The notes beneath the pieces were generated by a model. The model was not told where the DNA came from. It worked only from the letters and a program-made list of their open reading frames with translations, and did no database searches. A DNA stretch of 60,970 bases, taken from the IMG/VR virus record IMGVR_UViG_3300033986_000160. One strand, given 5' to 3'. This stretch comes from an uncultured virus (IMG/VR IMGVR_UViG_3300033986_000160). Taxonomy: Duplodnaviria > Heunggongvirae > Uroviricota > Caudoviricetes. Made by a program: the position numbers and the translations under genes. Position 1 is the stretch's first letter, and every line of letters starts with the position of its first letter. This document shows positions 3 through 60,970 of this stretch, piece after piece.

Positions 3-1385
3 GTAGGAAAGGAAAATGAAGATGACTTCTCGCCTGCCGGTGTTCATGCTCGTTTTACCGAAGGTGAAATCAGATTCGGCAAAGTATGGGAGAAATTCGC
101 TCACTTGAATACTATGTTCCATATAAAGTTCTTGCAGGTAAGGTCTGCACTTGAGAGTTATGAACGCAGGGATTTATACGGCAAAGACTTTCAAAGATGG
201 GAGCATCCTATCCGGGACTTCCTCCGCCCAGCAATCGACCAGAATATAAACAACAAGTATGGAATACTGGTTGGCGGTTTGGTCGGCTCATTGTTTGGCC
301 GTACACTTTATGGTAAAATTATAGGAGCAACAGTTGGTGTTGCAGTAATTGGTTCAGGTAAGGCATACAAGAAAGCATATGAATTAATTTCAGGTGAGAA
401 ATGGATACCTGAACGCAGGGAAAAAGAACGTGATTTAAACGAATACATTGACATCCTGAAATTTATCAAATACAAGCGATTGTATGTTGAGTATGCACAG
501 AAATCAAAACTCAAGGAGAACTTTGATGTTCAGAAGTTCCTTGACGCTCAGAAAGCTCGTGGTGAAAAAAATAAAGCAAGAATCAAGGATCTTGAAGAAG
601 CAAAGAGGTTAATAAAAATCAAGGGCGACAGTGCAATACGGTCGATGTATAAACAGTATAGACCAAAATACGGCACCCCAGGAATGAACGTGGACGAGAT
701 GATATCTGCAATCAACAAAGAAATGACAGAACTCATGAATGAACGAAAGGCCGTTAAAGTTCCAAAGATTGCACAAAAGGCCATTGCATACTACAACTTA
801 TCAGAGAAGACCATGTACGGATACGATGTCGGAGAGCCTATCCAAAACATCCTGGCCGCAATGCCAAAGAAGGATAGACAGTATCTCAGTTACTTTATGA
901 AAGCTCCGGAAGAAGAACGCATGAAGATTCTTGAGGTGGCTCCACGGTATGTCCGCAGGGTTCTCGAACAAACATGGGGGCTGCCTGTTGAGGGCAAACC
1001 AGATCTTATTCAGTATTTCAAGCACCATCAACTTCCAGGACCTGACTGGGAAGGATGGGATGAAAACATAAACCTGGATCTGGTTAAAGTTAAAATGGTT
1101 CGTAATGAAGCCCTTGATATTTCAGATTTTAATATCTGGGAAGACGACGTGCAGCAGGCAAAAGCAATGGGACCTATTCCGCTGCCTAAACTATATATAA
1201 GTGACTATGCAGAGAAGGTAAAGGCAAAACTCGAAGATCTACTGCACGGAATAGGACTAAACGACGTATCTGTAAGCTATTCTCTATCATCAAAGGATAT
1301 TGATGTAGATATAGACCTGCAAAGAGACAAAAAGAAAGAGATAGAGAGGTACATTAACGAAAAAGGTGCATCTCTATTCCAATAG
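3..1385 (+). CDS. C-terminal part of a large virion protein (tape-measure-like or internal protein), 5' truncated by the window
   Basis: Frame is open from position 3 (VGKENEDDF...). Gly-rich hydrophobic segments (GILVGGLVGSLFG...IIGATVGVAVIGSG), Lys/Glu-rich helical region, directly upstream of the structural block. Confidence 0.55.
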   Translation, partial: VGKENEDDFSPAGVHARFTEGEIRFGKVWEKFAHLNTMFHIKFLQVRSALESYERRDLYGKDFQRWEHPIRDFLRPAIDQNINNKYGILVGGLVGSLFGRTLYGKIIGATVGVAVIGSGKAYKKAYELISGEKWIPERREKERDLNEYIDILKFIKYKRLYVEYAQKSKLKENFDVQKFLDAQKARGEKNKARIKDLEEAKRLIKIKGDSAIRSMYKQYRPKYGTPGMNVDEMISAINKEMTELMNERKAVKVPKIAQKAIAYYNLSEKTMYGYDVGEPIQNILAAMPKKDRQYLSYFMKAPEEERMKILEVAPRYVRRVLEQTWGLPVEGKPDLIQYFKHHQLPGPDWEGWDENINLDLVKVKMVRNEALDISDFNIWEDDVQQAKAMGPIPLPKLYISDYAEKVKAKLEDLLHGIGLNDVSVSYSLSSKDIDVDIDLQRDKKKEIERYINEKGASLFQ

Positions 1386-1396
1386 GGGGTTAAAGC

Positions 1397-4300
1397 ATGG
1401 CAATTAGACCGGTAATGAGTGCTAATATGAACAGTAACCTGAAGATGAACAGGTATAGTGATTTCTTCAATGGCATGGATGAAGAAAAGATTGACGCATA
1501 TAAAAACGTCCGTGGAATGATAGATGAGTTAAAAGGTACTGAAGCCGACGTATCATTAAAGGACTTTTATTTCAAGTCATTCAATGCAGGAGTAATGGAT
1601 TATAACATTCCTGCACTTGAGCAAGGCATGAATATGTTTAATGATATGCTGGACGCCGGTGCCGGTTCTGTGTACGCAATGGACCTTGAAACTCTCGGCA
1701 ACCCTTTTGGTGATGCATCAGAAAAGGGTTTGTTTGCCATTACAGAAATGACTCTTACCAAGAAAGATCTCGCAACAGGTACTGTCCTTGACGTACAAAA
1801 CGTCCTGTTCGGCCTTACTGAAGAACAAAGGCTTGCTTACGAAAATCTGATTGCCAGAGCTGAACTCGGATACAACTCATTGACCAGTTCAGAAAAGGCA
1901 ACTATAGAACGTCTTGCAAGGTATGGAGCAAAGGATACTAAGATTATTAACAGAGGAGGCAAAGCAATACTTGCCAACCTCGGTATAGCTAATCCTATGG
2001 ATCTTACCGCAGCAAAGAAGGGTTTAAATAGACTTGTAGATATAGGTCCCGGGCAGGCATGGGGTAGCCAGTTTGCCCGTGACCAGCTAATCATTGCATC
2101 AAATCACTTAAATCAGATAAAAGGCCCAAACAATATTTTGTTCACACACAACGGCAGCAAGTTTGATATGCCTGCTTTTAACGAAGCATTACGTATGCAT
2201 GGTATTAGCAATACAATTAACGACATAAACCATGTTGACTTTCAAGCTGCCATTCATACAGCATATGGTGGAGATACACTGAATCTTCACTTAACAGCCC
2301 GTGAAACAAACGGTGTAAAAGGTAAGATTAAAGGGGCTCTTGAAACTCTTGATAAACTTGCAGAATCTTTTGGTATAAGGACTCACGCCCATGTTGCCTC
2401 AAACGACAACAGGACGTTGATTAACCTTTTAACTGCTCCGTACAGGAAAACTGAGCATGGTACAATCAATCTTGGCCAGGACTTAAAGTCCAGACTGAAT
2501 GCATATTCAGTTCTGTCAAAACACCAGGACATTGATCCAAGCACTGTTGCTGACAAGGTTATATTCGTAAAGAATGCCGTATATACAAATGGTCTTGACT
2601 ACATAAAAACAAGTGAAGGAATCAAACCTTACGGAGACTGGCCATTACAAAGGAATAATTTCTATAGGATTGAAAATGTCGGGAAAGTAAATATCAAAGA
2701 CACCGCTTCTTTGCGGAAGATAGGCATAAATGTGCCTGCCGGAAGCACTGGAAGTGATCTTTATTATATGACACTACGCAATGTGGCTACCGGTAAAGAA
2801 GAAGAAACAATAAATATAGTACGTAGTTCAAGAGAAGAACTTCAGGCATTGTTCCAGAAAAATCTTGAGGTGTTCCGGTACACTAAAGACCTTAAAGATA
2901 TAAGTTCAGACCTTGACGCAAAGATGGCATTGCAAAACCAGATTGTAAGCCAGGCAATGATTGATGAAACGACAAGGCTTGCCACAAGGGACAATGCAAG
3001 ACGTAAGTTTGAAGGTATGTTCCAGACTTCAGGTAAAGGGTTTAATTATGCCAAAGGAATGTACCAAACCTATAATAATTTATACCAGAACGGCATTACA
3101 ACAGCGGAAGAAGCGGCACTCTATATCCAAAACAATCCTACAAGTGAATTGTTAAGAGGTCTTCAGTATAAAGGAGATATTATACCCGAACGTCGTAGTG
3201 ATTTCCTTGAGATGTTCAACCTCATCAGAGATACTTCAGACACGATGACTACTGTAATCAACAGAATTGAATCCAACATCCCAGTCAAAGGAGAAGCTGG
3301 AACCGTCAAAAGGACTGTTGCTCTCGGACGTGCGTATGAGAATCTTCAGAATGCAATTATGCAAGCCTCCGGTGTTGCTGAGAACATAGCAAAGAACAGG
3401 AAGCTGATAACCCCATATCCAATGGATATTGACGTTATTAATATAGGTGTTGATGACATTCATAGAATCACTGTAAGGGCTCGTTCTGTTGAAGAAGCAA
3501 GGATTAACATATTAAATGGAATAGACAAACTGGTAGGTACAGAGAAGAACAAGAGGGCAAGAGAAAACAAACGAATGTTCTATCTAAGACGGCTTGCAGA
3601 GAATGTCTATGGAAAAGATTCAGAGAAGCTGGAACGTATGTTTGGTCAGCTTGACAGTGCATACTATACTGCCGGAGAAATTGCAGGCGACCTTAACAAA
3701 CAGTTCCTTGACGGAACATTAAATATCGGCCGTGACGAGATATACGCTACAGATCTTGATAGTTATGTCATCAATTCATCTACATTTGACCAGTTCATGG
3801 TTGATAATAACATTAACGTTCTTGGCTTGACCGACGCTGCAAGTGCCCATATCGGGTCTTTAACCGAGGCTTCTCTTGGCGATACAGTTGTCATGGAAAA
3901 AGGCGTGTTTACCATTAAGGATGAAAACCTTAGAAAACTCTTGATGGAGGATTATCACTATAGTGCAGATAACGTGCACGACCTTATGAGAGGATTATAT
4001 GGTAAAAGTCCGGATGGTACTGAGTACGGCCTTGTCAATAAACATGGTTTGGTTGCCGAATTGTTTGTTGACGAAGAAGGGTATCTTTCTATAGCATTGA
4101 CAGACAAGAAACATGCAACAGAATTATACGAATCTCTGGCAAAGAACGAGGTTCCAAAGAATGCGGCCATATCAAGGCTTCCGCAGGTAAGCTATTATGG
4201 CGATGACACTGACCTGTTAAAGAAGGTGTCATTTGGAAGCGTTGAGAAACAGGTAACTACTGAACTTAATACATATTATTCTCCTGGTTCGAGCGAAAGC

Positions 4301-7300
4301 TATTATAATAACATCAGGATAGCTGCAAGGGACACAACCAGCGAATCGCTAAACTCCCTTGTTAAACTCCACAGGGTTCTTCCTGACCTGATAGAAGCAG
4401 GAGAGTACGACAGAGCTTCAAGGCAGCTTACAAATACAATGGCTGCTCCTATATTTGGAGGTTCTGGTTTCTCAGGAAATACAACAGTAGCAATTGACGA
4501 TATTCTTGCTGAAAAAGCTCTGCGTCCGAACGTATCCGATATTATCACGGCATCGACCGTAGATATGACCGGACTTGTAAACTTCATCCCTGAGCTCTAT
4601 AAAAGAGACGAAGAAATAAGAAATGACCTTAACCGCATACTTGTAAACAACAAAGCGATCGACGACAGATTTATTGATAACTGGATAAGGGATATCCAGG
4701 CAGGAAACCTCAAACAATTCAGTGACATGGACATCGAGTTACGTGAATGGTACACGATGAATATGTTTGAAGGTCATAAGATACTGCATAAAATCCGCGA
4801 CCTTAAAGCTGAAGGAGGACGTTTATTCCAGAAGGAAGTCTCATTACTTGACAGCTTGATTGCAAATGGAGCTTCGTTCTTTAACAAGGCTGAAAAAGTA
4901 TCTGAGGGTATTGCTGTATTGGAAAATCCATTTGAGTATGTAACATATGGATTCATGAATGAGCTTTCCCGTCCTGTCGCAAGGCAATCACTTGCATTTC
5001 ACGCCCTTGACCCAAGAGAACTTACAGGTGCTTCAGTTAAGCTCGAAGCGGCCGGTATGAAACTTGGACAGACTGTAGTTACAGACAAAATGTATAACAA
5101 GTATCTGAAAAAGTATAGGTTTGAAACAGGAATTACCGGTGACATAAAGAATTTGAATGACACCGAGATACTTGATGCAATAGAATCTCTTGACAAAGAA
5201 GAATTATACAAGAAGTATGGTAGGTCAAGAGTTGATAAGGTTATAAATGAATATAAGACAATCGGTAGTACATTCCAGCAGCACTCATTGATTAATCCGA
5301 TGCTGACTGCTGACATATACAACAAACCTGAGCTTATAAAATTTGATGTGACAGGCAATAGTTTTGAGTTTGCCGAAGGGCTTGGTGTTGGTAAAAAAAT
5401 CAAATCCGGTTCTTTACTCGGATACGAAATAGACGGAGAAACAAGAAGGGCTGTTGTATACAATGGTCAGGATGGAATAATCTCTGGATTTATCAACAGA
5501 AAGAACGCACAAAAAGTTGTCATAAAACCATTTAATGCACAGATAGATGAAATAAAGCTCATCATGGGAGGTGTTGAAAAATCTGTTGCATCTGTTGTAA
5601 ACCGAGATGCCGAAATGCTTCCTATAGCTCAGGAAATCTGGGATAAACTATTTGGTAAGAGTACAGCGGTCGTAGGGCGATTTGAAATAGGAAAGCACGA
5701 AGCTGCAAGCATCGCATACGGTAGCACTATTACCAGAATGGCTGAAAGAGCTCTTGAGCATGGAGAAGCTGTACAGAATGAATTCGCCAATCTTTTAAAC
5801 CAGAACCTTCCCGAATGGAATGGCCGATGGGAAGGAAACAAGTTTGTCATTTCAGGGAATCCGAATGCTGCCGGAGGACATTTCAGCGGCATACGAAACC
5901 TTGTTGATGCAATGAGAGATAAGGGTATTTATGATGATATCATAGCCGACTTTGACAATCCGAACACAAATACGCTGCGTACTTTGATATCTAAAGGTCA
6001 GATGTCCGAAATGTTTTCTGTCATGGAAGACGAAGCGGATATTTACGGAAAAGGTCTCAAAATTACAGACCGTGAGTTACAGATTGCAGGTATTAGATCT
6101 GGAGAACAACCGACGGATTTCTTTTTCCAGGATGCCAACGGTAAATGGCAAAAGAAATTACAACCTGTTATTGACGCATGGCGTGAGGAAATCACACGAG
6201 AAAATATCGAGCTTGAGAACGGTAAATTACTTGAAACCAATTACAGCAAAGCAAAGAAAGACCTTAGAAATATAACCAACACATACAGTGCATTGCGTGG
6301 CGAAACACCGACAGCAGCTATTAAAGAACTTCATTTTGATGATGTAAAACCGATATTAAAAGGTGTTGATGCTGCAACACTCGAAGATGCTTTAAAAGGG
6401 ACTGTGTTTGAAGATGTTGCCGATGTGTTTAAGATTACCCTTCCAAATAATATGAAGGTCTTAAACATGGTTACAGGCGAAATGGATGACCATATTTATA
6501 TACCGTATCTGCACTCATACGATATTGACGGCAAGGTTATTACACATAACGCCCACAGAAAATCAGCAGACCTTCTAAGGATGCTTGACAGTATTGCCGA
6601 AGGCAAACTTCCTAACGGCGTAAGAAGCATGAGTCAATTACAGAGTGCATTAAATGACGCTTATGCTGAAGCTATGGCCGCATACGGGCGTGAACTGTCT
6701 GATGACAAGAACAGTATATTAAAGAGACATCTGGTGTCCGGAAGATTATCACATTCGGGACAGGGACTTGCTGGTGCTGTTGTTTCACCTGAATTATTCA
6801 AAAACGGCGAAGTAGATTCACGGCTTGCCGGAATTGTGCATAGCGATGTTGTAGAGAAGGTCGGAGATAAAATACTCTATAAGGATGTTGCTTATACATC
6901 TGCTGAGATGCTCGAAGACATGGGTGTTAACTTTGCAGAGATAGGGCGGCAGGTTCTTGAAGACAAGAAAATACGTTCTCAGATTGGTGACGTGGACGCA
7001 TTTATTGCAAGATCCGGATTTAACCGCTATGATCTTACAAAGGCACCTATAGACATTGACATGCTCCATGAGATCATCAAGCAGAAGATACTGAAAGACA
7101 ACAATCCTTATACAATAGATGATGCAAGGGAAGCCCTTGAGAACCTCACTCAGCTTGGTAAATATTATGCAAGAGAAAAGGGTATCATGAGTATAATGCT
7201 TCGTTATCCGTCATTCTTGCAAACATCTCTTGGAGTAACAAATATCAGATTGTCTCCTTACATGCATGGTCGTAAATTCAACATCATGAGTTGGACGGCA

Positions 7301-10291
7301 GCAGGATTAAACGCCGATATTGACGCTGACAGACTTTCTGTATGGCTCAATCTTACAAAAACCGGAGGACTTCAAGCTGATACTGAAGTTAAACAGAAAG
7401 CACTGATAGATGTATTTAACGCTCAAGCAAGAAACAATGCCAAGCTATTTAAGAAGGCTCTTGAAGATTATGCCGACGTAGAGCCTGACGGACTCAAGGC
7501 TTATAGTGCAAAAGGCTTCGATGAATTTCTTGTCAAGAAGATTTCAAAGAAGTTAGGGTACACCGGAACAGATCAGGAAATCTTCGACCAGTTTGATGCA
7601 AGATCCAACAAACTGATGGACCCTGAAAGAAGAATGACAGCCGTAAAGGCCAACTTTGACAAGGCCGGTATCGGTTATATATCAAACACTAATGTGATTG
7701 TAAGGGATATAGCTTTTGAACAATTCAGAGATTCTGGTGATATATATACACTTTCAAACATCCTTGAGTTTACAGACAAGACAGAGCAGAAACTGATTGA
7801 CGTTAAGCATATGAAAACAATGGGCGATGGAGGCGGCAATATTGATGATATCATTATCAAAGCCGGACGATACAGAACTGCAATAAACACCCTCGCAACA
7901 GGTGACGCAAGGCAAAAAGACGAAGCAATCAACAAACTTCGTGAAATTTTGTTCAATAGTGATGTTTACAAGAGAGAGCAGTCCGTAAGGGTTGATGAAG
8001 TTCTCGGTTCGCTCCGTCAATTGTTTGACAGCAAGTATGCAAAACAATGGACAAACCCAATCAGAAGCAAGATGTCAGGAAAAAATTATGCCGAACAGAT
8101 TAAGGACGTCAATAACTTCCTGAAGAATCCCACAGCATACGGCGGGACTGAGTTAACAAATCTTTCTGTCAATGAAGTGATTCATGCAAATGATATAGAC
8201 ACTATAAGCATTGACGATACAGCTCTTGTTCCTCCATCAAAAGGAACAGAATATCCCGTCTTGCTAAAGGACAGTGCTGGCAAAACATCTCCACCAATAG
8301 GTGCATATGTATATAGTGGTTCAGGTGTTGGTGCCAATACCAATATGAAGTATGTTGAGCTTGAAGAATTCATCACAGATCCTTCTGTAAACAAAGCAAG
8401 AAGCAAACGTTACAGGATATACGGCAATACAATGGCTGATATCCAGCGTCAGATGAGAGATGAGTTCAGAGTAGCAACTGACATCAATGATGTCCAGAAT
8501 TTGATTGATGTTGAGAAGGGTAGAATCCTTGACTCGGCGATGTCAAGCGGTTTTGAGTTCGAGAAAGAGCGTATTACGGCTGAATTCTTAAACGGTGGAA
8601 GTATTGATGATATTTTGGCCAAATCAACCATAGGGGTAGAGAACCGTCAGGATATCATCGATCATCTTACCAATCTTAACCCTACTCAATATCAAAGCGA
8701 AGCATACAGGCAATTGGCTTCAGAGTTCTTTGACAACGAAATGACTGGCCGGCCAATGCGTAGATTCTCTGCCGCAGTATCAGAACTGGCTGAAAGAAAT
8801 TACATTGGAAACCAGGCAAGTCTTATACAGGCATTTAATAACTATATACGGCAACGTGGTGCTGAAGGCCCTTCAGACAAATGGAATCCTGCAATGATTT
8901 CAGATGTCCATGATGAATTAATCCGAAAGGCATTGTATCAGGTTCCAGGTCTTCCATCAGCACAGATAGAAGGAATCCTAAACCAGGTTAACACCGTAGC
9001 GGACGATATGATAGCCCGTAAAGGAGAAATACGGTTAAGACCTGCTAAAGTACAGAATGTTGCCGAGACTATTGCAAGAATACAGGATACTCCATTGTAT
9101 GACATGAAAAGTGCCTTCTCTCAACTTGAGAACATGGCAAACGATATGTTAGGCAATATAACAAAAACTCAACTGGAAAGTTTTGCTGAAGCAACACGGC
9201 TTAGTCCCGAAGATGCTATCGCAAAACTTAGGCATACTGTAAAGAACGAGAATATCCAACTTCCATTCAAGGCAATCACTCAGGCTGAAAGCGTTAAGAT
9301 AGCTTCGCTTAACCAAATGTATTCAGAGCTTCTTGCGTCAAAGAACCAAGAAGCAATGGATTTCCTTGGCTGGAAACCTATAAATGAAGTTGTCAACGCA
9401 TACAACCCAAGTGCGGCAGCAAGAGCTGTAGGTGAAACTTACGACCCAATTGCGGCCATACGTGAAATTGGCCAATCCAAAGTTACTTATGGAAGATATG
9501 CCGGCATGGAGTTCTCGTCATTATCAATCGGGGAGCTCAAGGAAATTATGAATCTCCGTCCTGAAACTGCAAAGACCAGGATTGAAGCAGACAATATTGT
9601 AGCTCTCAAACAAAGAGTAAATCAATATTTCTCATTGCTTGACCAGAATACATCAGCAGTAAGAGCTGAAGGAATTAGTATAAATATTCCTGAAGCTGTA
9701 CGCAAATCGAGGTATGTTGATGTAGATATAAACGAACTTTTAAAGTCCAATGGTATAGAGTTAAAGAACTTGGACGATTTATTGGATACAACCAAAAGGG
9801 ACTTAAAATTTGATATGGCTCGTGGTACAATAAAAGAAGGGGCAGAAAATGCTGTCAAGCGTTCCGAAGATTTGCTTGGAAGCAGTAAGTTCGGAAAGAT
9901 AGCTCTTGCCGGTTTGGCTCTTGGTCTTGCAGGATATATTGTTGGACAGATGAGTGCAAAACCAGGACCGCTACAACCGGAGCATAGACCTTCAGGCGAA
10001 GGAGCTCCCGCACCAGATGGAACTTACGAACCGAAAGTCAACTATAAAACACCACAACCGCAGATGCCAAAGAAAGCAGTAATGCAGGAAAACAATCCTG
10101 GAATGCGGATAAAGATAAGTGCAAAGAATGGAACCAGCATGTCAAACAGTGATGTTGCTGGAGCAGTAAACAAAGCCATCGCTGATTCCTTGCCAAATAG
10201 AATGAATGTCAACGTGGTTTCAAGAGACGACACCAGTGCAGTCAATGACAGTTGGTTGGAAGAACAGTTTAAGAGGCTTATAGGAGGGTGA
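1397..10291 (+). CDS. Putative virion-packaged single-subunit two-barrel (beta/beta'-like) RNA polymerase with N-terminal DEDDh 3'-5' exonuclease
   Basis: DEDDh motifs DLET (D96,E98), HNGSKFD (D257), HVASND (H332,D337). Beta-like motifs RPVARQS, KLIMGGVEK (K1387/K1395, same spacing as beta KMAGRHGNK), GKGLKITDRE. Beta'-like motifs ILKRHLVSGRLSHSG, LRYPSF, GLNADIDAD (aa 1970-1978). C-terminal hydrophobic helix IALAGLALGLAGYIVG. RBS GGGGT. Confidence 0.75.
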   Translation: MAIRPVMSANMNSNLKMNRYSDFFNGMDEEKIDAYKNVRGMIDELKGTEADVSLKDFYFKSFNAGVMDYNIPALEQGMNMFNDMLDAGAGSVYAMDLETLGNPFGDASEKGLFAITEMTLTKKDLATGTVLDVQNVLFGLTEEQRLAYENLIARAELGYNSLTSSEKATIERLARYGAKDTKIINRGGKAILANLGIANPMDLTAAKKGLNRLVDIGPGQAWGSQFARDQLIIASNHLNQIKGPNNILFTHNGSKFDMPAFNEALRMHGISNTINDINHVDFQAAIHTAYGGDTLNLHLTARETNGVKGKIKGALETLDKLAESFGIRTHAHVASNDNRTLINLLTAPYRKTEHGTINLGQDLKSRLNAYSVLSKHQDIDPSTVADKVIFVKNAVYTNGLDYIKTSEGIKPYGDWPLQRNNFYRIENVGKVNIKDTASLRKIGINVPAGSTGSDLYYMTLRNVATGKEEETINIVRSSREELQALFQKNLEVFRYTKDLKDISSDLDAKMALQNQIVSQAMIDETTRLATRDNARRKFEGMFQTSGKGFNYAKGMYQTYNNLYQNGITTAEEAALYIQNNPTSELLRGLQYKGDIIPERRSDFLEMFNLIRDTSDTMTTVINRIESNIPVKGEAGTVKRTVALGRAYENLQNAIMQASGVAENIAKNRKLITPYPMDIDVINIGVDDIHRITVRARSVEEARINILNGIDKLVGTEKNKRARENKRMFYLRRLAENVYGKDSEKLERMFGQLDSAYYTAGEIAGDLNKQFLDGTLNIGRDEIYATDLDSYVINSSTFDQFMVDNNINVLGLTDAASAHIGSLTEASLGDTVVMEKGVFTIKDENLRKLLMEDYHYSADNVHDLMRGLYGKSPDGTEYGLVNKHGLVAELFVDEEGYLSIALTDKKHATELYESLAKNEVPKNAAISRLPQVSYYGDDTDLLKKVSFGSVEKQVTTELNTYYSPGSSESYYNNIRIAARDTTSESLNSLVKLHRVLPDLIEAGEYDRASRQLTNTMAAPIFGGSGFSGNTTVAIDDILAEKALRPNVSDIITASTVDMTGLVNFIPELYKRDEEIRNDLNRILVNNKAIDDRFIDNWIRDIQAGNLKQFSDMDIELREWYTMNMFEGHKILHKIRDLKAEGGRLFQKEVSLLDSLIANGASFFNKAEKVSEGIAVLENPFEYVTYGFMNELSRPVARQSLAFHALDPRELTGASVKLEAAGMKLGQTVVTDKMYNKYLKKYRFETGITGDIKNLNDTEILDAIESLDKEELYKKYGRSRVDKVINEYKTIGSTFQQHSLINPMLTADIYNKPELIKFDVTGNSFEFAEGLGVGKKIKSGSLLGYEIDGETRRAVVYNGQDGIISGFINRKNAQKVVIKPFNAQIDEIKLIMGGVEKSVASVVNRDAEMLPIAQEIWDKLFGKSTAVVGRFEIGKHEAASIAYGSTITRMAERALEHGEAVQNEFANLLNQNLPEWNGRWEGNKFVISGNPNAAGGHFSGIRNLVDAMRDKGIYDDIIADFDNPNTNTLRTLISKGQMSEMFSVMEDEADIYGKGLKITDRELQIAGIRSGEQPTDFFFQDANGKWQKKLQPVIDAWREEITRENIELENGKLLETNYSKAKKDLRNITNTYSALRGETPTAAIKELHFDDVKPILKGVDAATLEDALKGTVFEDVADVFKITLPNNMKVLNMVTGEMDDHIYIPYLHSYDIDGKVITHNAHRKSADLLRMLDSIAEGKLPNGVRSMSQLQSALNDAYAEAMAAYGRELSDDKNSILKRHLVSGRLSHSGQGLAGAVVSPELFKNGEVDSRLAGIVHSDVVEKVGDKILYKDVAYTSAEMLEDMGVNFAEIGRQVLEDKKIRSQIGDVDAFIARSGFNRYDLTKAPIDIDMLHEIIKQKILKDNNPYTIDDAREALENLTQLGKYYAREKGIMSIMLRYPSFLQTSLGVTNIRLSPYMHGRKFNIMSWTAAGLNADIDADRLSVWLNLTKTGGLQADTEVKQKALIDVFNAQARNNAKLFKKALEDYADVEPDGLKAYSAKGFDEFLVKKISKKLGYTGTDQEIFDQFDARSNKLMDPERRMTAVKANFDKAGIGYISNTNVIVRDIAFEQFRDSGDIYTLSNILEFTDKTEQKLIDVKHMKTMGDGGGNIDDIIIKAGRYRTAINTLATGDARQKDEAINKLREILFNSDVYKREQSVRVDEVLGSLRQLFDSKYAKQWTNPIRSKMSGKNYAEQIKDVNNFLKNPTAYGGTELTNLSVNEVIHANDIDTISIDDTALVPPSKGTEYPVLLKDSAGKTSPPIGAYVYSGSGVGANTNMKYVELEEFITDPSVNKARSKRYRIYGNTMADIQRQMRDEFRVATDINDVQNLIDVEKGRILDSAMSSGFEFEKERITAEFLNGGSIDDILAKSTIGVENRQDIIDHLTNLNPTQYQSEAYRQLASEFFDNEMTGRPMRRFSAAVSELAERNYIGNQASLIQAFNNYIRQRGAEGPSDKWNPAMISDVHDELIRKALYQVPGLPSAQIEGILNQVNTVADDMIARKGEIRLRPAKVQNVAETIARIQDTPLYDMKSAFSQLENMANDMLGNITKTQLESFAEATRLSPEDAIAKLRHTVKNENIQLPFKAITQAESVKIASLNQMYSELLASKNQEAMDFLGWKPINEVVNAYNPSAAARAVGETYDPIAAIREIGQSKVTYGRYAGMEFSSLSIGELKEIMNLRPETAKTRIEADNIVALKQRVNQYFSLLDQNTSAVRAEGISINIPEAVRKSRYVDVDINELLKSNGIELKNLDDLLDTTKRDLKFDMARGTIKEGAENAVKRSEDLLGSSKFGKIALAGLALGLAGYIVGQMSAKPGPLQPEHRPSGEGAPAPDGTYEPKVNYKTPQPQMPKKAVMQENNPGMRIKISAKNGTSMSNSDVAGAVNKAIADSLPNRMNVNVVSRDDTSAVNDSWLEEQFKRLIGG

Positions 10292-10298
10292 GGTCATA

Positions 10299-13200
10299 GT
10301 GGCAGACTATAGAAAAAGCACTTCCCTGTTCTCTAAATACAGAGATCCGGGAGGTATTAGCACAGGCGAGCTATTAGACAGATATTACAACATTCCCGAA
10401 GGCAGGACTACAGCTCCCCTGTCTTACCTTGATAATGTCGATTTTCCGCATAGGATATTCGATTTCCATTATAACTTCAGACTTGGCGATTGTCAGTTCA
10501 AGATCCCTCCGGAATTCATACAGGTAAAGACAATTACCGAAACAAATTCCGTTGTAGGAATTAGACAGTCTACTTCGCTAAAAACCAAATCCGGGTATAG
10601 CCGTAAACAGATCGTTATTACTCTGTTTTTCAACGGACTTAACCAGATCAACGGATATAAATGTGAATCGCCTTTTTCATATCCTTACTACATGGACGGT
10701 CTCCGGAGTCTTCTTGCTCAATTCAAGAGGACCCCGTTCCTTCCTGTTGTAAATGAACTTATTAATGGAGTACATGGAATATACAATGTAGCATTATCAA
10801 ACATTACAATCAACACCGTACAGGGGTTTCCTGAATGTCTCCAGGCGGAACTCACGTTGCTTGACTTTAACGTCGTACCGTTGATTGAAGCTCCTCCTTT
10901 TATGTATCATAACATGATAGACTGGGATATGTTCAGATGGTACTATCAGCAATTACTTCGCCCTGATGACAGGGTATACGACAGGAACGAACATGCTACA
11001 ACAAGACTTCAGCCGATACAGAATACAAACCTTACAGGTAAGTTCGGATTGTATATATTAAGCGAAGAAGCTCTTGCTGCAATGAACGACGGAAAGTACA
11101 AGCCAGACCTAAGCGACAGCAGTAACTATATACTGTGTGTTGACGACGAAACCGGTATACGCCTGACAGATATATTCTGCGGTTACTCAAACGTGCTTCC
11201 TGCAATACAGTTAAGCAAAGAAGGGACGCCTACGTATCAGTATCTTGGAGGTACAGATGCGACGTTTACCTTTATATTTGAAACTCAGGACAGAGATGTC
11301 GTTACGGCTCTGGTTGACTTAAATGAACGATGCCAGAGGATGGTAAGGGAGTACCGCAAACTTCACGGCCTCGGCTTCATCAAAATAGAGAACGAATTAG
11401 TGCAAATGCTCGGTGCACAGTATGTCATGTTCAATACAATGGACATCACTACTGTGCCCGACTTCCCAGATTTGTTTAGAATACAGATAGAGGCTGTAAG
11501 TTACGATATTGACCAGAGTAAGAAAGAAACATTGACTGGCATGAAGCCTTTCGATGGCGATGGCACATTGCTTGCCAGAAAAGTAGGTACAACCTATGAT
11601 TGGACTGAAGTCGCAGAACCAAACACAACCATCACTAACACTTATATGGGTCTTATCACAAAGATCCGGCAGGACAATTACATAGAACACAAGATGAAGC
11701 TCATGGACCTTTATCCGGACCTTCAGCTACCTACGTTTGAAGAATTGGATGATTTTATCACAACCATAAGAGAATGGAGAAGGAGTAAGGGGCTTCAGGC
11801 ATATCCTTTGTCTGGACCGTACCCGAAAGACGACGGTAGAATTAAATTCTCAGATCCTGATTTCTACGTTTTCTACCCTATTAAATACGGAGACGCACAG
11901 AATATTATAACAGGAACCGGAGGAAATGTAGGAGGAGAAACTTACGATCCTGATGACGGTGCAATTTCAGTTGCCGGTATATTCAAGTCTGGATTGTATG
12001 GTGCAACAGAAACTACGCCCGGACAGCACCCAAAGACACAAGAATTGCTTAAACTTCTTGAGAGCAAAATAGGATGCGGATATGTATGGGGTGCTGAAGG
12101 AGAGATTCTTACTCAGGAAGGTCTTGCTGCCTTAAAGAAGCAATTTGGAGCAAGTCATTATGATTTTGTTGATGATGATGGCACTCGTGTTCTTGCAAGT
12201 AAATGGATAGGTAAACAGGTGTTCGACTGCTCTGGATTTATTAACTGGGGGCTTATCCAGGTTGGAATTGCTCCAAAAGGATACAGAACCACACATTCAA
12301 CTACTTTTAATGACTGGTGTATCGAAATCAAAAAGAGCGAAATACTCCCTGGCGATATAGCCATGAATTCAACCCATATCGCAATGATATCTGATCCTGA
12401 CAAAGATCAAACAATCGAGGCTATGGGTACACGGTACGGTGTTGTTCACGGAAAGATAGGGAATAGATTCACAAAGTTTGGAAGACTAAAAGGCGGAAAG
12501 ACAAAGAGCTCAACAACTCCAACACCGAATGCCGCAACTCAACAGGTTAGCAAGGCACAGACTACAGATTACAATGCAAAGCGTGATGCTTATAACCCGA
12601 CATACCAGGCAATTTACGATTATGCAAACATACAGTGCACAAAGCTCGGCGTTCCAATTCGTCTAATGTGTGCAATGATGGAGATAGAAAGTAATTGGAC
12701 ACAATGGTGGACGACAGCAGGGAAGAAAGCGGATGGCAAGTACCATAACGCAGGAGATGTTGTAAGGTCTTACGCAAATGCTGTTGGTATCTGCCAAATT
12801 GTGCACCATAGTCCTAACGGTACTCCTGTCAATAATCAATACGATTATGACAAACTGCAAAATGACTGGAGATATAATATAGAGTGCGGGGCCAAAGAAC
12901 TTTATGAATGCTATAAGGGGGCATCACAAAGATTTACAAATGAAGAAGACCGAGCAAGAGCTGCATGGTGTGCATATAACATGGGGCGTTATGCAAGTCA
13001 GAGCTATACAAGATGGAGAGATAACCCTAACAGGGATGATATAAAGTTTAAGGAATATTATGAGAAGCAACCCTGGTTATCGAGAATTGACACCGCAAAG
13101 ATTCCGACTTCCAATGGGACAGATTACACTGGAAGCGTAGAAGTTCCAGAAACCGACCTTAGTGTTACAAACAACTTTGCAAGTCTTAACTTCAACAGGG

Positions 13201-15929
13201 AGGAATTCGGCAAAGATATACGCAGACTGTCCGACATCCACGGCGGTGTAAAAGAAACCAAGAACTTTAACGGCCATAAACAAGACAAATATCCTATTGA
13301 GCATATGTGTCATGATATGACCCAGTACAATAAACGTGGAAGACTCCTTAGAGCATTCCCGACATTTATATTTATGATGCTTGATGAAAACGGGGATTGG
13401 CTTGATGGAAAGAAATTGTGGACTAACTATTATTTCTATAGATCCATTATGGATATCCAGATTCATCAGGACAGGAAACAGCCCGTACATACTGCTATAA
13501 TTAAGATCAGCAATGTGTACAACAACCTGGGAAAATCACCACCAAGGGAGTACGACTGGGTAAAAGAACAGATGGGTGGAGGTATACAGGGATGGTTGTA
13601 TGAAACCTTTGGTATTCAGGTTGGAACACCAAAGGCAACACAATCAATGGTTGAGAACAAGAACAAGGTTTTAAAACATGTTTACCTTGATGCAGGATGT
13701 AGAATTCATTTGAGAATTGGATACGGAAATGATGCCGAGATGCTGCCAATAACATTTACCGGCCAAATAACCGAAATGGATACTGCTGAAATCATTACAT
13801 TTGTAGCCCAGAGTGACGGTGTCGAACTTATTAATAGAGCTGTAGGGACAAACAACAAGAGTCAAACCAACACGCTGTTTAACATAGGCACAGAGCCTTC
13901 AAATATCATTAAGTCCTTGCTGTGTGACCGTGAGAGCGATTTCATATCATGGTGTAACCACAAATGGTACGAGAACAGCAAGTATGGTATTCAGCATTTT
14001 GGAACTCCTACATTGGTTGATGACACCGGTTTTGTCAAGTTTAACATTGACAGGTTTGTTGATGTTAGTATGAACATGGCTTTTGATACTGAAACAATGA
14101 AAATGGTTCAGGCAATTAAGGCCGAGAAAAATCCTATGGCGGCTATAGGAGAATACTTTGAACAGACATTTAAAGACTGGAAATGGACAGATCCTTCTAC
14201 ATGGTGGGAATCGTTCAAGAACATGTTCAAAGTTTTAGCCGCACTCACTCTTGAAGCCGGTATGAAGTTGGAGCTCAGTGTCGGACAGGCGATAGTTGAT
14301 TTTGTTGCCGGTAACTACAAAAACATGTCGTGGCCTGAGTATTATGACATCATCAAGAACATTTATCTTGGAGGCGTCAAGGGTGATGAAAAAAGGATGG
14401 AGGACTATGCCGCTATCCATATGAACCTTAATGGTAAATTGGCGATTGATCCGTTTGACGGCGAGGAAAATTTACGTGTGTTTATTTATAACAAATGTGT
14501 ATGGGATATCATGCAGGTTGTAACACAGTCAATTCCTGAATTTGTATGCCAACCAATGTATCATCAGTTTGAAACAAGAGTATTCTTTGGTCATCCTTTT
14601 TGGCTCGCAAAATACAAATACTATTACGATGCCAAAGATAGGAAGATATACGAACATGAGAAACCTTTTACTCAGTTTCATCTGTATGATTCGTTGAGTG
14701 ACATTATAGATAACCAAATCAAGGCTGATGGCAGGGGGCTTGCTACTAACATTATTGGTATGTATACACTTGGCCATAGCTTAAAGACAACACCCACTAT
14801 ATTCGCAGACAAGACGATTGCGTGGGACTATCAGAAAACAAGGGTTATTGATACATCGTTTGTTCAGAACTGGTTTGGGCCGGATATGTTGTACGAGTTT
14901 TTTGACGACTATAAGGCAGAGCGTACAGCAATCAGGATATGCACATCAAACCTGATAGACGGCTTCCAGTGTATTTACAAAGGCCCACTGATAGTAATAG
15001 GTGATTCCAGTGTAAAACCGTGCGATATCATAGGAATAACCGATAGCTACACTGGTATGTACGGATTAGCAGAGGTAAGGGAGGTATCACACTCGTTTAG
15101 TGTGGATACAGGATTTGTAACATCCATAACTCCAGACCTATATACAACCGGTGCTGGGTTTATGATGAAGCAGGATGCTCAGAGCGTATTCTTATCTCTT
15201 GCGATGGGATTTGGTGGTATTGTAGCACAACGTTCAGCAGGTATATTTGCTGCAAATACAGCCGTAAGATATGCGGCTGCCGGTACTGGAGTTGCTATAG
15301 GGCTTGTTGCAATACGGGTTGGTGGACTGATAATCGATGGGTTCAGGACTGGGCGAATACTCCTTAATGTCAAGGATTTTGCAGACACATTAAAGACAGC
15401 CAAAGAGATAAAGAACCTTACGAAAACGATTAAAGAAGTCAAGAACATAAAAACAGCCGTCAATGTTGCAAAACAGGCTGGCATGGCAGCAAAGTCAATA
15501 CAGGCTGAAGCTGCATTGCTCGGCACTGAGATACTCCCAGGTATAGGTACTATCGTCCTGTGGCTTGCAGCTACGATCGCAACCGAATGTCTATTAAAGG
15601 CAGTAGTTGACTTCTTTAGCTATCAGAACTGCATTAAGTGTTTCCCGCTCTTATATAATGGCAAACCATTTATAGCAGGAGTTAAAGGACACACACAACT
15701 CATACCTGGATACAACGACATGGGTATGCTGGCTGACGACACAAGCAAGCCAATAGAAGAAGGTATTGAGATTGAAGGCGAATATGCAAACAGCTCTGCC
15801 GGCACAGCATCTGGTGGTTATGACGATGGACTTGGTTATACTGAAGGTCCTAAGATGAGCGGCGGCCCAATTGATGGTGCAAAGCCTGGAGAAGATGGCT
15901 ATATGCCTGGTGCAGGATTATACGCATAG
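10299..15929 (+). CDS. Baseplate hub / tail-associated lysin with NlpC/P60 peptidase and lytic transglycosylase domains
   Basis: NlpC/P60: KIGCGYVWGAEG...FDCSGFINWG...PGDI...THIAM. SLT: MMEIESNW...AVGICQI...YNIECGAKEL...AYNMG. Hub-like segments GCRIHLRIGYG...FTGQITE and IGDSSVKPCDII...VSHSFS. C-terminal hydrophobic segments. Confidence 0.8.
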   Translation: MADYRKSTSLFSKYRDPGGISTGELLDRYYNIPEGRTTAPLSYLDNVDFPHRIFDFHYNFRLGDCQFKIPPEFIQVKTITETNSVVGIRQSTSLKTKSGYSRKQIVITLFFNGLNQINGYKCESPFSYPYYMDGLRSLLAQFKRTPFLPVVNELINGVHGIYNVALSNITINTVQGFPECLQAELTLLDFNVVPLIEAPPFMYHNMIDWDMFRWYYQQLLRPDDRVYDRNEHATTRLQPIQNTNLTGKFGLYILSEEALAAMNDGKYKPDLSDSSNYILCVDDETGIRLTDIFCGYSNVLPAIQLSKEGTPTYQYLGGTDATFTFIFETQDRDVVTALVDLNERCQRMVREYRKLHGLGFIKIENELVQMLGAQYVMFNTMDITTVPDFPDLFRIQIEAVSYDIDQSKKETLTGMKPFDGDGTLLARKVGTTYDWTEVAEPNTTITNTYMGLITKIRQDNYIEHKMKLMDLYPDLQLPTFEELDDFITTIREWRRSKGLQAYPLSGPYPKDDGRIKFSDPDFYVFYPIKYGDAQNIITGTGGNVGGETYDPDDGAISVAGIFKSGLYGATETTPGQHPKTQELLKLLESKIGCGYVWGAEGEILTQEGLAALKKQFGASHYDFVDDDGTRVLASKWIGKQVFDCSGFINWGLIQVGIAPKGYRTTHSTTFNDWCIEIKKSEILPGDIAMNSTHIAMISDPDKDQTIEAMGTRYGVVHGKIGNRFTKFGRLKGGKTKSSTTPTPNAATQQVSKAQTTDYNAKRDAYNPTYQAIYDYANIQCTKLGVPIRLMCAMMEIESNWTQWWTTAGKKADGKYHNAGDVVRSYANAVGICQIVHHSPNGTPVNNQYDYDKLQNDWRYNIECGAKELYECYKGASQRFTNEEDRARAAWCAYNMGRYASQSYTRWRDNPNRDDIKFKEYYEKQPWLSRIDTAKIPTSNGTDYTGSVEVPETDLSVTNNFASLNFNREEFGKDIRRLSDIHGGVKETKNFNGHKQDKYPIEHMCHDMTQYNKRGRLLRAFPTFIFMMLDENGDWLDGKKLWTNYYFYRSIMDIQIHQDRKQPVHTAIIKISNVYNNLGKSPPREYDWVKEQMGGGIQGWLYETFGIQVGTPKATQSMVENKNKVLKHVYLDAGCRIHLRIGYGNDAEMLPITFTGQITEMDTAEIITFVAQSDGVELINRAVGTNNKSQTNTLFNIGTEPSNIIKSLLCDRESDFISWCNHKWYENSKYGIQHFGTPTLVDDTGFVKFNIDRFVDVSMNMAFDTETMKMVQAIKAEKNPMAAIGEYFEQTFKDWKWTDPSTWWESFKNMFKVLAALTLEAGMKLELSVGQAIVDFVAGNYKNMSWPEYYDIIKNIYLGGVKGDEKRMEDYAAIHMNLNGKLAIDPFDGEENLRVFIYNKCVWDIMQVVTQSIPEFVCQPMYHQFETRVFFGHPFWLAKYKYYYDAKDRKIYEHEKPFTQFHLYDSLSDIIDNQIKADGRGLATNIIGMYTLGHSLKTTPTIFADKTIAWDYQKTRVIDTSFVQNWFGPDMLYEFFDDYKAERTAIRICTSNLIDGFQCIYKGPLIVIGDSSVKPCDIIGITDSYTGMYGLAEVREVSHSFSVDTGFVTSITPDLYTTGAGFMMKQDAQSVFLSLAMGFGGIVAQRSAGIFAANTAVRYAAAGTGVAIGLVAIRVGGLIIDGFRTGRILLNVKDFADTLKTAKEIKNLTKTIKEVKNIKTAVNVAKQAGMAAKSIQAEAALLGTEILPGIGTIVLWLAATIATECLLKAVVDFFSYQNCIKCFPLLYNGKPFIAGVKGHTQLIPGYNDMGMLADDTSKPIEEGIEIEGEYANSSAGTASGGYDDGLGYTEGPKMSGGPIDGAKPGEDGYMPGAGLYA

Positions 15930-50306: not shown

Positions 50307-50800
50307 TATAATACCTCCTTTACTATCTGCTTGAACTGATCAAGCGTAATAACTGTGTGTGGAACCTTGAATAATTTAATTCCCTTGGTTCTTAATATTT
50401 CTTCCTTAAGTTTATCACATTTCTGGAGATATTGGAATTCCTCCTCAGTCTGGAAATATTGCTTTGTATCGTGTTGCTGGCCTTCTACTTCAATTGCGAA
50501 ATGCGGTTTATTTCCGTATACAAATACGTCAAGTTGCATCGGATAACCTTTTGGAGATGGCAGCCATGAATAATATCCGCCAAATATAACAGGTCGATCC
50601 GGAAACAACTCTCTTACAAACATTTGTATTCGAAATTCCAGTTTACTGCGTTGAGGTATCGGTGCACGTTTTGGCTTCCTATAAACAGAAGCCGGCGAGT
50701 GTTCCTTGCAATATCCCGGTTTCTTTGTAGTATATTCAACAACCTTCCCGCACTTCTTGCATGTTGTAGTCTTGATCCTTATTTCCTTCTTCTTGGCCAT
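50306..50800 (-). CDS. Zn-ribbon plus Vsr/DUF559-like PD-(D/E)XK endonuclease
   Basis: CKKC...YCKEH, then QLDVFV...FAIEVEGQQH...DKLKEEIL..KGIKLFKV. Confidence 0.7.
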   Translation of the reverse strand: MAKKKEIRIKTTTCKKCGKVVEYTTKKPGYCKEHSPASVYRKPKRAPIPQRSKLEFRIQMFVRELFPDRPVIFGGYYSWLPSPKGYPMQLDVFVYGNKPHFAIEVEGQQHDTKQYFQTEEEFQYLQKCDKLKEEILRTKGIKLFKVPHTVITLDQFKQIVKEVL

Positions 50801-51626
50801 GAATAATCGCCTCCAGCTTGCGTTGTGCAGCCATCCTGCGACGGTTAATCGTAGCACGACATACTCCACATTGCTCACCGATGTCTTGATCCCTCAGTTT
50901 GTCTACATAGTAGAGCTTCAGGATTTTCCGTTCAAATGAGGTTAACTTCTTGAACGGCTCACAGCACGTATATCCATCTATCCATGCAATATCAAATATC
51001 GCATTGTCGTATGGATTCTTGCATATCACTGGTTTTAACCTAACGTCGGACTCATAGAACTTTTTTATTGTATAATGCCAATCTGCAATCTCCAATGCTT
51101 TGTCAAATTGGTCTTCTATACTTTCATCGCTTTCAAACTCGTCTTCATAACTAATTAATGATTTGCTTACCGGATCAGTAAAATACTTTGTAGTCTTCCA
51201 CCAGAACCATTTGTAGAAGCATTTGTCAACATAGTTATGAAAACTTGGTTTAGTATCCTTGTAGCATTTAGCCATTTCAAGAATGACAGCTATTGCTTCT
51301 GCCTTCATTTCTTCGTACCCGTACTGTGAGAGCAGATATGAAACGACTTTACTTGTTTCATATAGCTGCTCTCTTACGGTATATCTCTTTTTATAGTTGT
51401 TAACCTGTGACCGAATGCTCTTGTCAGCAATAAACATGCCTACAAAATTCCTTAGCGTAAAGTCATTTATATTGAAAGTTTCATTCATAATGAAATCCAG
51501 AAACTTCTCAATAAACCATGAAAATGACTCTAATATCTGTATGGCAGCATCCATATTACCGGCTTTATATTGAAAGGCCAAGTTATGAATTTTTTGATAA
51601 TCTTCCTTTGTAAAATTTGGTGCCAT
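50736..51626 (-). CDS. Phage sigma-70-family sigma factor
   Basis: YKAGNMDAAIQIL (region 1.2-like), ILEMAKCY...SFHNYV (region 2), LTSFERKILKLYYVDKLRDQDIGEQCGVCRATINRRR (region 4 HTH). Confidence 0.8.
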   Translation of the reverse strand: MAPNFTKEDYQKIHNLAFQYKAGNMDAAIQILESFSWFIEKFLDFIMNETFNINDFTLRNFVGMFIADKSIRSQVNNYKKRYTVREQLYETSKVVSYLLSQYGYEEMKAEAIAVILEMAKCYKDTKPSFHNYVDKCFYKWFWWKTTKYFTDPVSKSLISYEDEFESDESIEDQFDKALEIADWHYTIKKFYESDVRLKPVICKNPYDNAIFDIAWIDGYTCCEPFKKLTSFERKILKLYYVDKLRDQDIGEQCGVCRATINRRRMAAQRKLEAIIHGQEEGNKDQDYNMQEVREGC

Positions 51627-51630
51627 ATTA

Positions 51631-60939: not shown

Positions 60940-60970
60940 ACAACTCCTCCTATGAACCTCTCCAACCTAC

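Follow-up and report, generated by a model that had tools for sequence, protein, structure and literature searches.

A 60,970-nucleotide (nt) stretch of DNA from an uncultured virus of the Caudoviricetes (IMG/VR record IMGVR_UViG_3300033986_000160), hereafter the window, carries on its plus strand an uninterrupted open reading frame (ORF) at positions 1397-10291 that encodes a protein of 2,964 amino acids (aa), here called P0001. The frame contains no stop under translation table 11, a Shine-Dalgarno-like GGGGG run lies 9 nt 5′ of its start, and the gene is separated by 11 nt from its upstream neighbor and by 7 nt from its downstream neighbor. From the N terminus onward, P0001 is predicted to consist of an exonuclease, a conserved globular region, a two-barrel RNA polymerase (RNAP) core, a variable region and a membrane/anchor module (Table 1). 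Searches with the whole protein gave no match above threshold in Pfam, PHROGs, PADLOC or the PDB sequences, and none by megablast or tblastn among 50,697 phage records, where tblastn with P0014, another member of the same family, was likewise without a match. A first-pass annotation of the window had proposed a hidden RNAP at this locus from a series of short motifs, and every one of them was recovered in both the translation and the DNA, including RPVARQS (first residue R1192, nt 4970), YGKGLKITDRE (from about nt 6044), ILKRHLVSGRLSHSG (beginning at nt 6716), RYPSF (R1936 at nt 7202) and NADIDAD (codons aac gcc gat att gac gct gac, nt 7310-7330).

Table 1. Predicted features of P0001 in window coordinates, with the separate YonO/RNA-dependent RNA polymerase (RdRP)-like genes of related genomes
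Feature	Position	Strand	Basis or remark
P0001, whole ORF	1397..10291	+	middle of three consecutive giant tail-module genes, flanked by the 1,863-aa gp145 orthologue and the 1,876-aa gp147-like hub/lysin
DEDDh (DnaQ-like) 3′-5′ exonuclease, aa ~85-375; motifs D96-x-E98, N252...D257, H332...D337	1649..2521	+	model, VIA, profile, conservation
Conserved alpha/beta region, aa 376-1169, predicted globular	2522..4903	+	pLDDT mostly 75-93; invariant D401, D532, R535
Beta/Rpb2-like module, second double-psi barrel, aa ~1170-1550	4904..6046	+	VIA matches all on model 1-450
TFQQH strand, aa 1292-1296, beta-side acidic place	5270..5284	+	model 147-150, just before the SBHM insert
SBHM (barrel-sandwich hybrid) flap-like insert within the beta-like barrel, aa ~1312-1383, contains GLGVGKKIKSGSLLG	5330..5545	+	VIA matches on model 160-234
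KLIMGGVEK, catalytic-site lysines K1387 and K1395	5555..5581	+	conservation, Rpb2 spacing
Beta′/Rpb1-like module, aa ~1631-2260	6287..8176	+	VIA: 8xme_A 12.7, 9mu7_A 9.6, archaeal A′ 2pmz_A 9.1, M. tuberculosis beta′ 6edt_D 8.7; Foldseek
First double-psi barrel (DPBB-A), aa ~1785-2010, with SGRLSHSG, R1936-Y-P1938 (nt 7202-7210) and the metal loop	6749..7426	+	isolated DPBB matches
NADIDAD metal-binding loop, D1974, D1976, D1978, A1977 for Gly	7310..7330	+	DNA read, conservation
Long conserved helices KAGIGYISN ... TEQKLIDVKH	7661..7810	+	model helices 943-964 and 967-989; K2089, S2096, E2130 and K2137 invariant in 26 members
Variable C-terminal region, aa 2261-2830	8177..9886	+	lowest conservation, most gaps
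C-terminal membrane/anchor module: hydrophobic aa 2832-2852 and conserved ~110-aa end (...DDTSAVNDSWLEEQF...)	9890..10288	+	common to 0305phi8-36 gp146
YonO/RdRP-like RNAP genes	L007 (G002:C1:62850-67682), L008 (G003/pCBJ), L006 (0305phi8-36)		read GGADxDGD

We predicted the structure of aa 1150-2349 with AlphaFold2 from a 32-row alignment (mean pLDDT 82.1, pTM 0.82) and searched with the model in three ways: with VIA-align, which is independent of Foldseek, over 48,161 chains; with Foldseek against the PDB; and with VIA over the 994 best chains from Foldseek. The structure aligner returns ranges rather than residue pairs. Ranks 1 to 18 of the 48,161 chains were all two-barrel polymerases. Model positions ~20-400 aligned to the second-largest subunits (beta/Rpb2) with Z scores of 10.6-12.5 in this search and up to 12.8 overall; the matches included plastid beta (8qma_A, Z 12.5, root-mean-square deviation (rmsd) 3.5, 214 residues aligned), the non-virion RNAPs (nvRNAPs) of phages AR9 (7s00_C, Z 12.2) and phiKZ (7ogp_C, Z 11.9), Pol IV, I and III, bacterial beta (6j9e_C, Z 11.0), and the enzymes of African swine fever virus and vaccinia. 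Model positions ~482-1111 aligned over the same chains to the largest subunits at Z 7.9-9.6, among them Rpb1 (9mu7_A, Z 9.6), A190, archaeal A′ and the beta′ of M. tuberculosis (Z 8.7). Within the 994 Foldseek chains, 848 reached a Z of at least 8, the best 50 were all RNAPs, and the largest subunit of Pol IV (8xme_A) aligned at Z 12.7 on model positions 628-1075. Foldseek itself returned 165 matches at E <= 0.001 (best E 1.9e-5); the best 49 listed were all entries of RNAP complexes, nearly all of them chain D or J of bacterial RNAP, which we take to be beta′. Aligned to single-chain enzymes, the whole model gave Z 9.2 with RDR2, 8.8 with QDE-1, 8.5 with P74 gp62 and 6.5 with P23-45 gp96. Sequence identity in the structural alignments was 8-13%, and the family profile matched beta′ in the PDB weakly at both expected sites (E 0.009-0.07). 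PolD DP2 and phi14:2 gp66 (6VR4) were not among the best 50 listed in either structural list, which is no evidence against kinship.

Isolated double-psi barrel domains matched model positions 636-861 (7dww_A, Z 6.9; 7dbo_B, Z 6.6; CDC48 N-domain, Z 7.4-7.7). In the beta-like half, the SBHM insert at model positions 160-234 matched biotinyl/lipoyl domains at Z 6.6-7.9 (NqrA 4u9o_A, 7.9; biotinyl 1bdo_A, 7.1) as well as the E. coli beta flap (3tbi_B, 6.5), and it sits between the TxEQ strand and K1387. Such an insert is described by Iyer et al. (PMC7824862) as common to cellular, killer-plasmid and phiKZ-type beta and as absent from RdRPs, YonO and NCgl1702-like enzymes. Because the model carries this flap insert and gives its best Z scores with beta and beta′, we read the core as cellular, multisubunit-like, and the likeness to YonO- and crAss-type enzymes drawn in the first-pass annotation was not upheld. 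Its central proposal was borne out by the predicted fold, the structure matches and the conservation described below: aa ~1170-2260 are predicted to form a complete single-chain two-barrel RNAP of cellular type, with a beta-like half followed by a beta′-like half, and for the RNAP fold we regard this as nearly certain. In the AlphaFold and Foldseek check that had been suggested, the listed matches were all RNAP entries. The pTM of the model, together with the whole-model alignments to QDE-1 and RDR2, speaks for correct packing, in which the Asp triad would face the Lys pair across the active site. The two long helices listed in Table 1 are a candidate bridge-helix region. The core of P0001 would probably carry out template-dependent RNA synthesis.

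The family was collected by an exhaustive HMMER search with P0001 aa 1150-2349 against 1,835,955,588 representative proteins (E <= 0.001). It returned 33 proteins, compared with only two from a word-index protein search of the collection; 26 of the 33 are 2,512-3,172 aa long, and the seven shorter ones are presumed to be fragments. All ten cluster look-ups led to metagenome proteins without names. Residue counts, in which the window itself is included, were taken from an alignment (A1) that combines the window segment with every hit except P0033 and P0035, the shortest two, leaving 31 of the 33. A1 is too divergent for deriving patterns; pattern scans gave 15 matches in genome contigs and 269 in metagenome contigs, none of which was confirmed in either set. 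The three Asp residues D1974, D1976 and D1978, on whose conservation the first-pass annotation had made its proposal depend, are each kept in 30 of 31 sequences, as are R1936 and P1938, the R-x-P ahead of the metal loop that is the counterpart of R446/P448 in Rpb1. K1387 is kept in 29 of 30 and E1394 and K1395 in 30 of 30, and the two lysines are eight residues apart, the same spacing as K979/K987 in Rpb2; R1192 is kept in 29 of 30 and R1783 in 27 of 30. Ruprich-Robert and Thuriaux list eight residues that are invariant across all two-barrel RNAPs, the Rpb2 K979/K987 pair among them (PMC2919709). The three Asp, the R-x-P and the Lys pair correspond to seven of these eight. A chance cluster of motifs, considered as a separate explanation, is ruled out by the fold and by the conservation across the family.

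Two departures from the usual active site had been pointed out in the window. The Ala in place of Gly in the catalytic loop is real (A1977, confirmed on the DNA). Across A1, the position of A1977 is occupied by Gly in 21 sequences, by Ala in nine and by Ser in one; with DxDGD in 21 of 31, DxDGD is the family norm and the DxDAD of the window a clade variant, so that alignment of the homologues upheld the three Asp but not the Ala as a conserved feature. The reading of the beta-side acidic pair as FQQH also holds for the window, where Q1294 occupies the position, but not for the family, in which the strand has the consensus TxEQ and the column of Q1294 contains Glu in 22 of 30 sequences, Gln in five (window, P0003, P0004, P0009 and P0020) and Leu, Met or Lys in three. 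As judged from aligned ranges, the TxEQ strand before the SBHM insert may carry the counterpart of the acidic residue that two-barrel RNAPs have on the beta side (Rpb2 D837).

The N-terminal part of P0001 adds a second predicted enzyme. The AlphaFold2 model of aa 1-1190 (27 rows; pLDDT 81.7, pTM 0.58) consists of compact alpha/beta domains without a long coiled coil. In the wide VIA search with this model, the best 50 rows were all DEDD exonucleases, aligned on model positions 83-375, and the matches included 9qpc_A (Z 13.7) and Pol III epsilon (1j53_A, Z 13.1, rmsd 3.0, 169 of 174 residues aligned). The family profile matched PDB exonucleases at E 3.4e-5; Foldseek on the same model returned only weak exonuclease rows (E 0.014 and up). 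Among the 26 full-length members, E98 and D337 are invariant and D96, D257 and H332 are each kept in at least 90%. On the predicted structure, aa ~85-375 are an intact DEDDh 3′-5′ exonuclease with the DxE motif, the ExoII Asp and the HxxxxD motif on an RNase H-like fold.

Proofreading enzymes classically combine a polymerase with a fused exonuclease of the DnaQ type, and the best exonuclease matches of P0001 include the polymerase-borne 9qpc_A and Pol III epsilon. The two-barrel core could on this account resemble archaeal PolD in being a DNA polymerase or a primase-like enzyme, with the exonuclease as its proofreader, and the fold cannot separate the use of ribonucleoside from that of deoxyribonucleoside triphosphates. 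We consider this highly improbable. All 18 of the 18 best structural matches are RNA polymerases; the SBHM flap, the R-x-P and NADxDGD are RNAP signatures; the window has its own DnaB-like helicase and primase on the other strand; and the P0001 gene sits in a tail module.

No Pfam or PHROG match and no usable Atlas match was found for aa 376-1169, a region barely tested by the structure searches, since the exonuclease filled their lists. Within aa 2261-2830, blocks of 100 aa average 0.10-0.15 identity to the query and have gap fractions of 0.20-0.35, and Pfam and other libraries gave no family match above cut-off; the Atlas look-alikes for aa 2261-2964 all stayed at or below 0.80, the nearest named cluster being Tape_meas_lam_C at 0.76, a level that often arises by chance. 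The Kyte-Doolittle score exceeds 1.5 solely at aa 2832-2852. From there on, P0001 resembles gp146 of Bacillus phage 0305phi8-36: hhalign of the family with gp146 gave a probability of 92% and E 6.6e-7 over 116 columns (P0001 2839-2964 to gp146 2409-2531), with nothing aligned outside this C-terminal module, and blastp gave 28% identity over 114 aa (E 2e-5).

The genes around P0001 belong to the tail module of a contractile-tailed phage. Read in reverse complement, bases 1-60,951 of a virus record of 122,948 bases (estimated completeness 57%) make up the window, apart from its last 19 bases (60952-60970), which fall outside the contig of that record. The nearest cultured relative is 0305phi8-36, with 30% identity on the gp171 orthologue. 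Upstream of P0001 lie a tail sheath gene (PHROG E 4.8e-229), tube-like genes, a small-gene pair at the position of the two-gene tail chaperone of 0305phi8-36, and a giant gene of 1,863 aa orthologous to gp145 (38% over 855 aa), whose C-terminal end occupies window 3-1385 and which is complete at L009:568-6159 (-). This giant contains a Cas4-like PD-(D/E)xK nuclease at aa ~1091-1229 (PADLOC Cas4 E 8.2e-8; PHROG Cas4-domain exonuclease E 1.2e-5; PDB 4ic1_A E 0.014), so that with the DEDDh domain of P0001 two adjoining tail-module giants each carry a nuclease. Downstream, window 10299-15929 (+) encodes the 1,876-aa hub/lysin, a gp147 orthologue (31% over 503 aa) with an SLT transglycosylase and weak NlpC/P60 matches (PHROG 20474 'endolysin', E 1e-286), followed by baseplate genes. 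The tail sheath, the baseplate genes and the 0305phi8-36 orthologues agree with the earlier proposal that the gene belongs to the virion gene set of a phage with a contractile tail and Firmicutes-phage relatives.

Beyond the baseplate genes, window 20787-33119 (+) holds a 4,110-aa ORF whose last ~90 aa match the Ig-like Invasin_D3/Big_1 families below the Pfam cut-offs and which matches the PHROG 'virion structural protein' 21285; judged by sequence, it is probably a long fibre protein. The coding strand switches at about window position 48000, where the GC and AT skews change sign. Beyond ~48 kb, the minus strand encodes a module for replication and nucleotide metabolism, with a dCMP deaminase, an HNH endonuclease, a RuvC-like resolvase, a thymidylate synthase, the DnaB-like helicase and the primase, and a sigma-like gene lies on the minus strand at 50736-51668.

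P0001 occupies the slot between the gp145 and gp147 orthologues, which in 0305phi8-36 is that of orf146, annotated as 'hypothetical tape measure protein' and, according to its record, found in virions by mass spectrometry. Hardies et al. report that the gene at the same position in the BtI1 and BwK1 elements aligned over the last 60 residues only (PMC2147016), a pattern that, by sequence, matches the C-terminal-only resemblance of P0001 to gp146. The arrangement of three giants was seen in all three contexts inspected: the window's own record, L003, which comes from a 199,804-bp record with terminal repeats, and pCBJ, a plasmid of Clostridium baratii str. Sullivan in which the 2,939-aa P0001 homologue is annotated 'hypothetical protein'. 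The gp145 orthologue of pCBJ (L005 9032-15994; 2,320 aa) is annotated 'LAGLIDADG family homing endonuclease', which suggests an intein inside that giant gene. P0001 itself does not show the features of a classical tape measure: it has no tape-measure match in Pfam or PHROGs, and aa 1-2260 are predicted to be compact alpha/beta (pLDDT ~82). The first-pass annotation contained neither the tape-measure-slot position nor the N-terminal DEDDh exonuclease, nor the published P23-45 gp96 precedent that we discuss below.

The gene's place in a late-type operon, with gaps of 11 nt and 7 nt, would also suit an active RNAP that is not packaged at all, being made late and serving within the cell, for instance in late-gene transcription, or only loosely associated with the tail; the family is, moreover, known from sequence records alone. 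We find this quite unlikely. An intracellular enzyme has no need of a membrane segment or of a C-terminal module common to a proven virion protein, and the relatives already encode a separate YonO-like RNAP in their non-structural region. The known giant fusions of this kind treated by Chaban et al. (2024, PMC10770324), P23-45 gp96 and crAss gp66, are all virion proteins.

The separate polymerase was recognized by PF05183 (RdRP/YonO-like), which matched in the complete sister record G002 (E 1.8e-34), in G003/pCBJ (E 3.5e-24) and in 0305phi8-36 (E 1.1e-20; the published orf99), one ORF in each; it had no match in G001. As judged from their sequences, two near-complete relatives encode an RNAP in the non-structural region besides the one in the tail module, and the two enzymes look unrelated, whereas 0305phi8-36 has only the YonO-like RNAP and a polymerase-free protein in the slot. 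Membership of P0001 in the YonO family was considered and ruled out: it has no PF05183 match, hhalign of its family with the YonO-like RNAP of the sister genome gave a probability of 0.1%, and it carries the SBHM insert.

Taken together, these data make it probable that P0001, in the tail/ejection module of a jumbo myophage resembling 0305phi8-36, is a virion-delivered, active RNAP. P0001 would be incorporated into the tail or the virion by way of its C-terminal module and would leave the particle with the DNA on infection. Tethered to the membrane, it would transcribe the first phage genes without the host polymerase; later gene classes would be read by the YonO-like non-virion RNAP seen in two relatives and by the host RNAP with the phage sigma-like factor. 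The exonuclease may work on nucleic-acid 3′ ends beside the polymerase, with possible roles on the entering DNA end, on host nucleic acid or in transcript trimming. The analysis itself establishes the predicted folds and their order, the conservation of the catalytic residues of both enzymes, the synteny and the C-terminal module common to gp146; packaging, ejection, catalysis, template and timing are parts of this model that we infer.

Several observations weigh against this reading. All family members seen are metagenome or plasmid records, and the alignments are small (27-32 sequences). PF05183 had no match in the window's own record, which is ~57% complete. The tape-measure label of gp146 rests mainly on tail length, as stated by Hardies et al. 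(PMC2147016), and ~2,260 of the 2,964 residues of P0001 are predicted to be globular, a poor fit to an extended tape measure or to folded passage through a tail tube. One family member, P0026, lacks the Asp triad, and the window protein combines Q1294 at the beta-side acidic position with A1977 in the metal loop, so that its own activity may be lowered.

The last two points, with the slot of an annotated tape measure in which the gene lies, would also fit a purely structural role, in which P0001 is a tape measure or another tail protein and its polymerase-like core, catalytically dead, survives only as a scaffold or a DNA-binding plug. That the 0305phi8-36 slot protein has no DxDxD motif counts on the same side, since the polymerase is then dispensable for building such a tail. 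On the other hand, a family at 19-43% identity keeps the Asp triad and the R-x-P in 30 of 31 sequences, along with the Lys pair and the exonuclease residues, which is the pattern of selection on catalysis. Loops of the DxDAD type also occur in phage RNAP-family proteins, such as DADAD in Vibrio phage pTD1 (profile 'Pseudo.1', supplement 8 of PMC10770324). We consider a dead core unlikely and keep to an active, virion-delivered RNAP.

A more specific version of the delivery model can be offered as a doubtful, speculative proposal. In it, P0001 would be ejected and act on the incoming genome as a combined nuclease and polymerase: the DEDDh domain would resect the 3′ strand of the leading end or clear host nucleic acid, exposing a single-stranded DNA template or promoter for a factor-independent, membrane-tethered RNAP, and transcription would help to draw in the ~200-kb genome. 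The Cas4-like nuclease would work alongside, and the cellular-type polymerase would have been captured by a tail protein independently of the P23-45 lineage. If this is true, an RNAP on a tail cargo protein would be a convergent solution in long-tailed phages, and the gene in the middle slot would be an exchangeable cassette, its cargo mounted on a shared C-terminal anchor.

Virion-delivered RNAPs let a phage begin its programme without the host enzyme. To our knowledge, they have so far been known from N4-like, phiKZ-like and crAss-like phages and from one Thermus siphophage. The unannotated family described here has a new architecture, of exonuclease, cellular-type core and anchor, in a new phage lineage; it would add 0305phi8-36-like jumbo myophages and Firmicutes-related phage-plasmids, in which the gene is labelled 'hypothetical' or, by position, 'tape measure', to the lineages with virion RNAPs. 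It suggests that a single chain of ~1,100 residues is room enough for a cellular-type beta-beta′ enzyme, and it pairs a cellular-type RNAP with a proofreading-type exonuclease in a new fusion; a fusion of an exonuclease with a cellular-type RNAP was not found in the literature searched. The polymerase-free slot protein of 0305phi8-36, which shares the C-terminal anchor, offers a natural comparison that bears on tail cargo loading. With a confident core fold (aa ~1150-2300) and natural Gly/Ala and Glu/Gln variants, variant effects on a two-barrel active site become directly testable.

A single precedent for an RNAP encoded within a tape-measure gene emerged from our literature search, gp96 of P23-45. 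According to Chaban et al. (2024, PMC10770324), gp96 is the 5,002-aa tape measure of a Thermus siphophage with an N-terminal clamp-less two-barrel RNAP bearing DFDGD; this RNAP is active in vitro and transcribes pre-early genes, including that of a second, non-virion RNAP. The authors describe the fusion as previously unsuspected and point to crAss-like and N4-like phages as further cases in which a virion RNAP is joined to a large protein (PMC10770324). Leaving aside their family alignments, the supplements of that paper contain no 0305phi8-36, Clostridium, baratii, ME3 or Microcystis. Like gp96, P0001 is a giant tail-module protein in the tape-measure slot, with a predicted single-chain two-barrel RNAP and a DxDGD-type loop, with a membrane segment further along the chain (several in gp96) and with a second, non-virion RNAP in the genome line. 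Unlike the N-terminal RNAP of gp96, that of P0001 is central, following the DEDDh exonuclease and ~800 aa; P0001 further differs in its SBHM insert, in its contractile-tailed virus and in that no metallopeptidase domain was found in Pfam and library scans. The gp96 structure (8h2m_A) aligned to the model at Z 6.5 (rmsd 4.5, 317 residues), as against Z 12-13 for cellular beta/beta′, and the PDB search gave no sequence match of P0001 to gp96. While the two P23-45 RNAPs are described as paralogues, the P0001 core has no detectable similarity to its YonO-like partner.

The phiKZ and AR9 nvRNAPs (7ogp and 7s00) and cellular beta/beta′ are the best matches of the beta-like half (Z 11.9-12.8), and P0001 shares with them the SBHM insert between acidic strand and Lys pair, together with R-x-P and NADxDGD in the beta′ half; unlike them, it is one chain within a 2,964-aa tail-module protein and has no RNAP match in Pfam or PHROGs. 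With YonO/RdRP-like enzymes (0305phi8-36 gp99, QDE-1 and RDR2) it shares the presence of both barrels in a single chain, but it lacks their PF05183 match and has the SBHM insert. Its slot and its homologous C-terminal membrane/anchor module are those of 0305phi8-36 gp146, which has neither a DxDxD motif nor an exonuclease nor a polymerase.

P0001 also resembles the crAss phi14:2 gp66 type, in which an RNAP module is buried in a giant virion protein, as it would be in P0001. The crAss-like phages are podovirus-like, and their RNAP protein is reported to be packaged in the head. In BFVD, pieces of crAss-like giants matched the model weakly (cr50_1, E 2.1e-6, TM 0.20). Other look-alikes there were A0A7R7G2L5_2 (E 4.6e-16, TMq 0.49), a 'minor tail protein' of Siphoviridae sp. 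ctnpt50 (E 2.6e-14), and uncharacterised proteins of the Acinetobacter jumbo phage vB_AbaM_ME3 and the Microcystis phage MaMV-DC, which suggests that tail- or virion-borne RNAP cores may be commoner than annotated.

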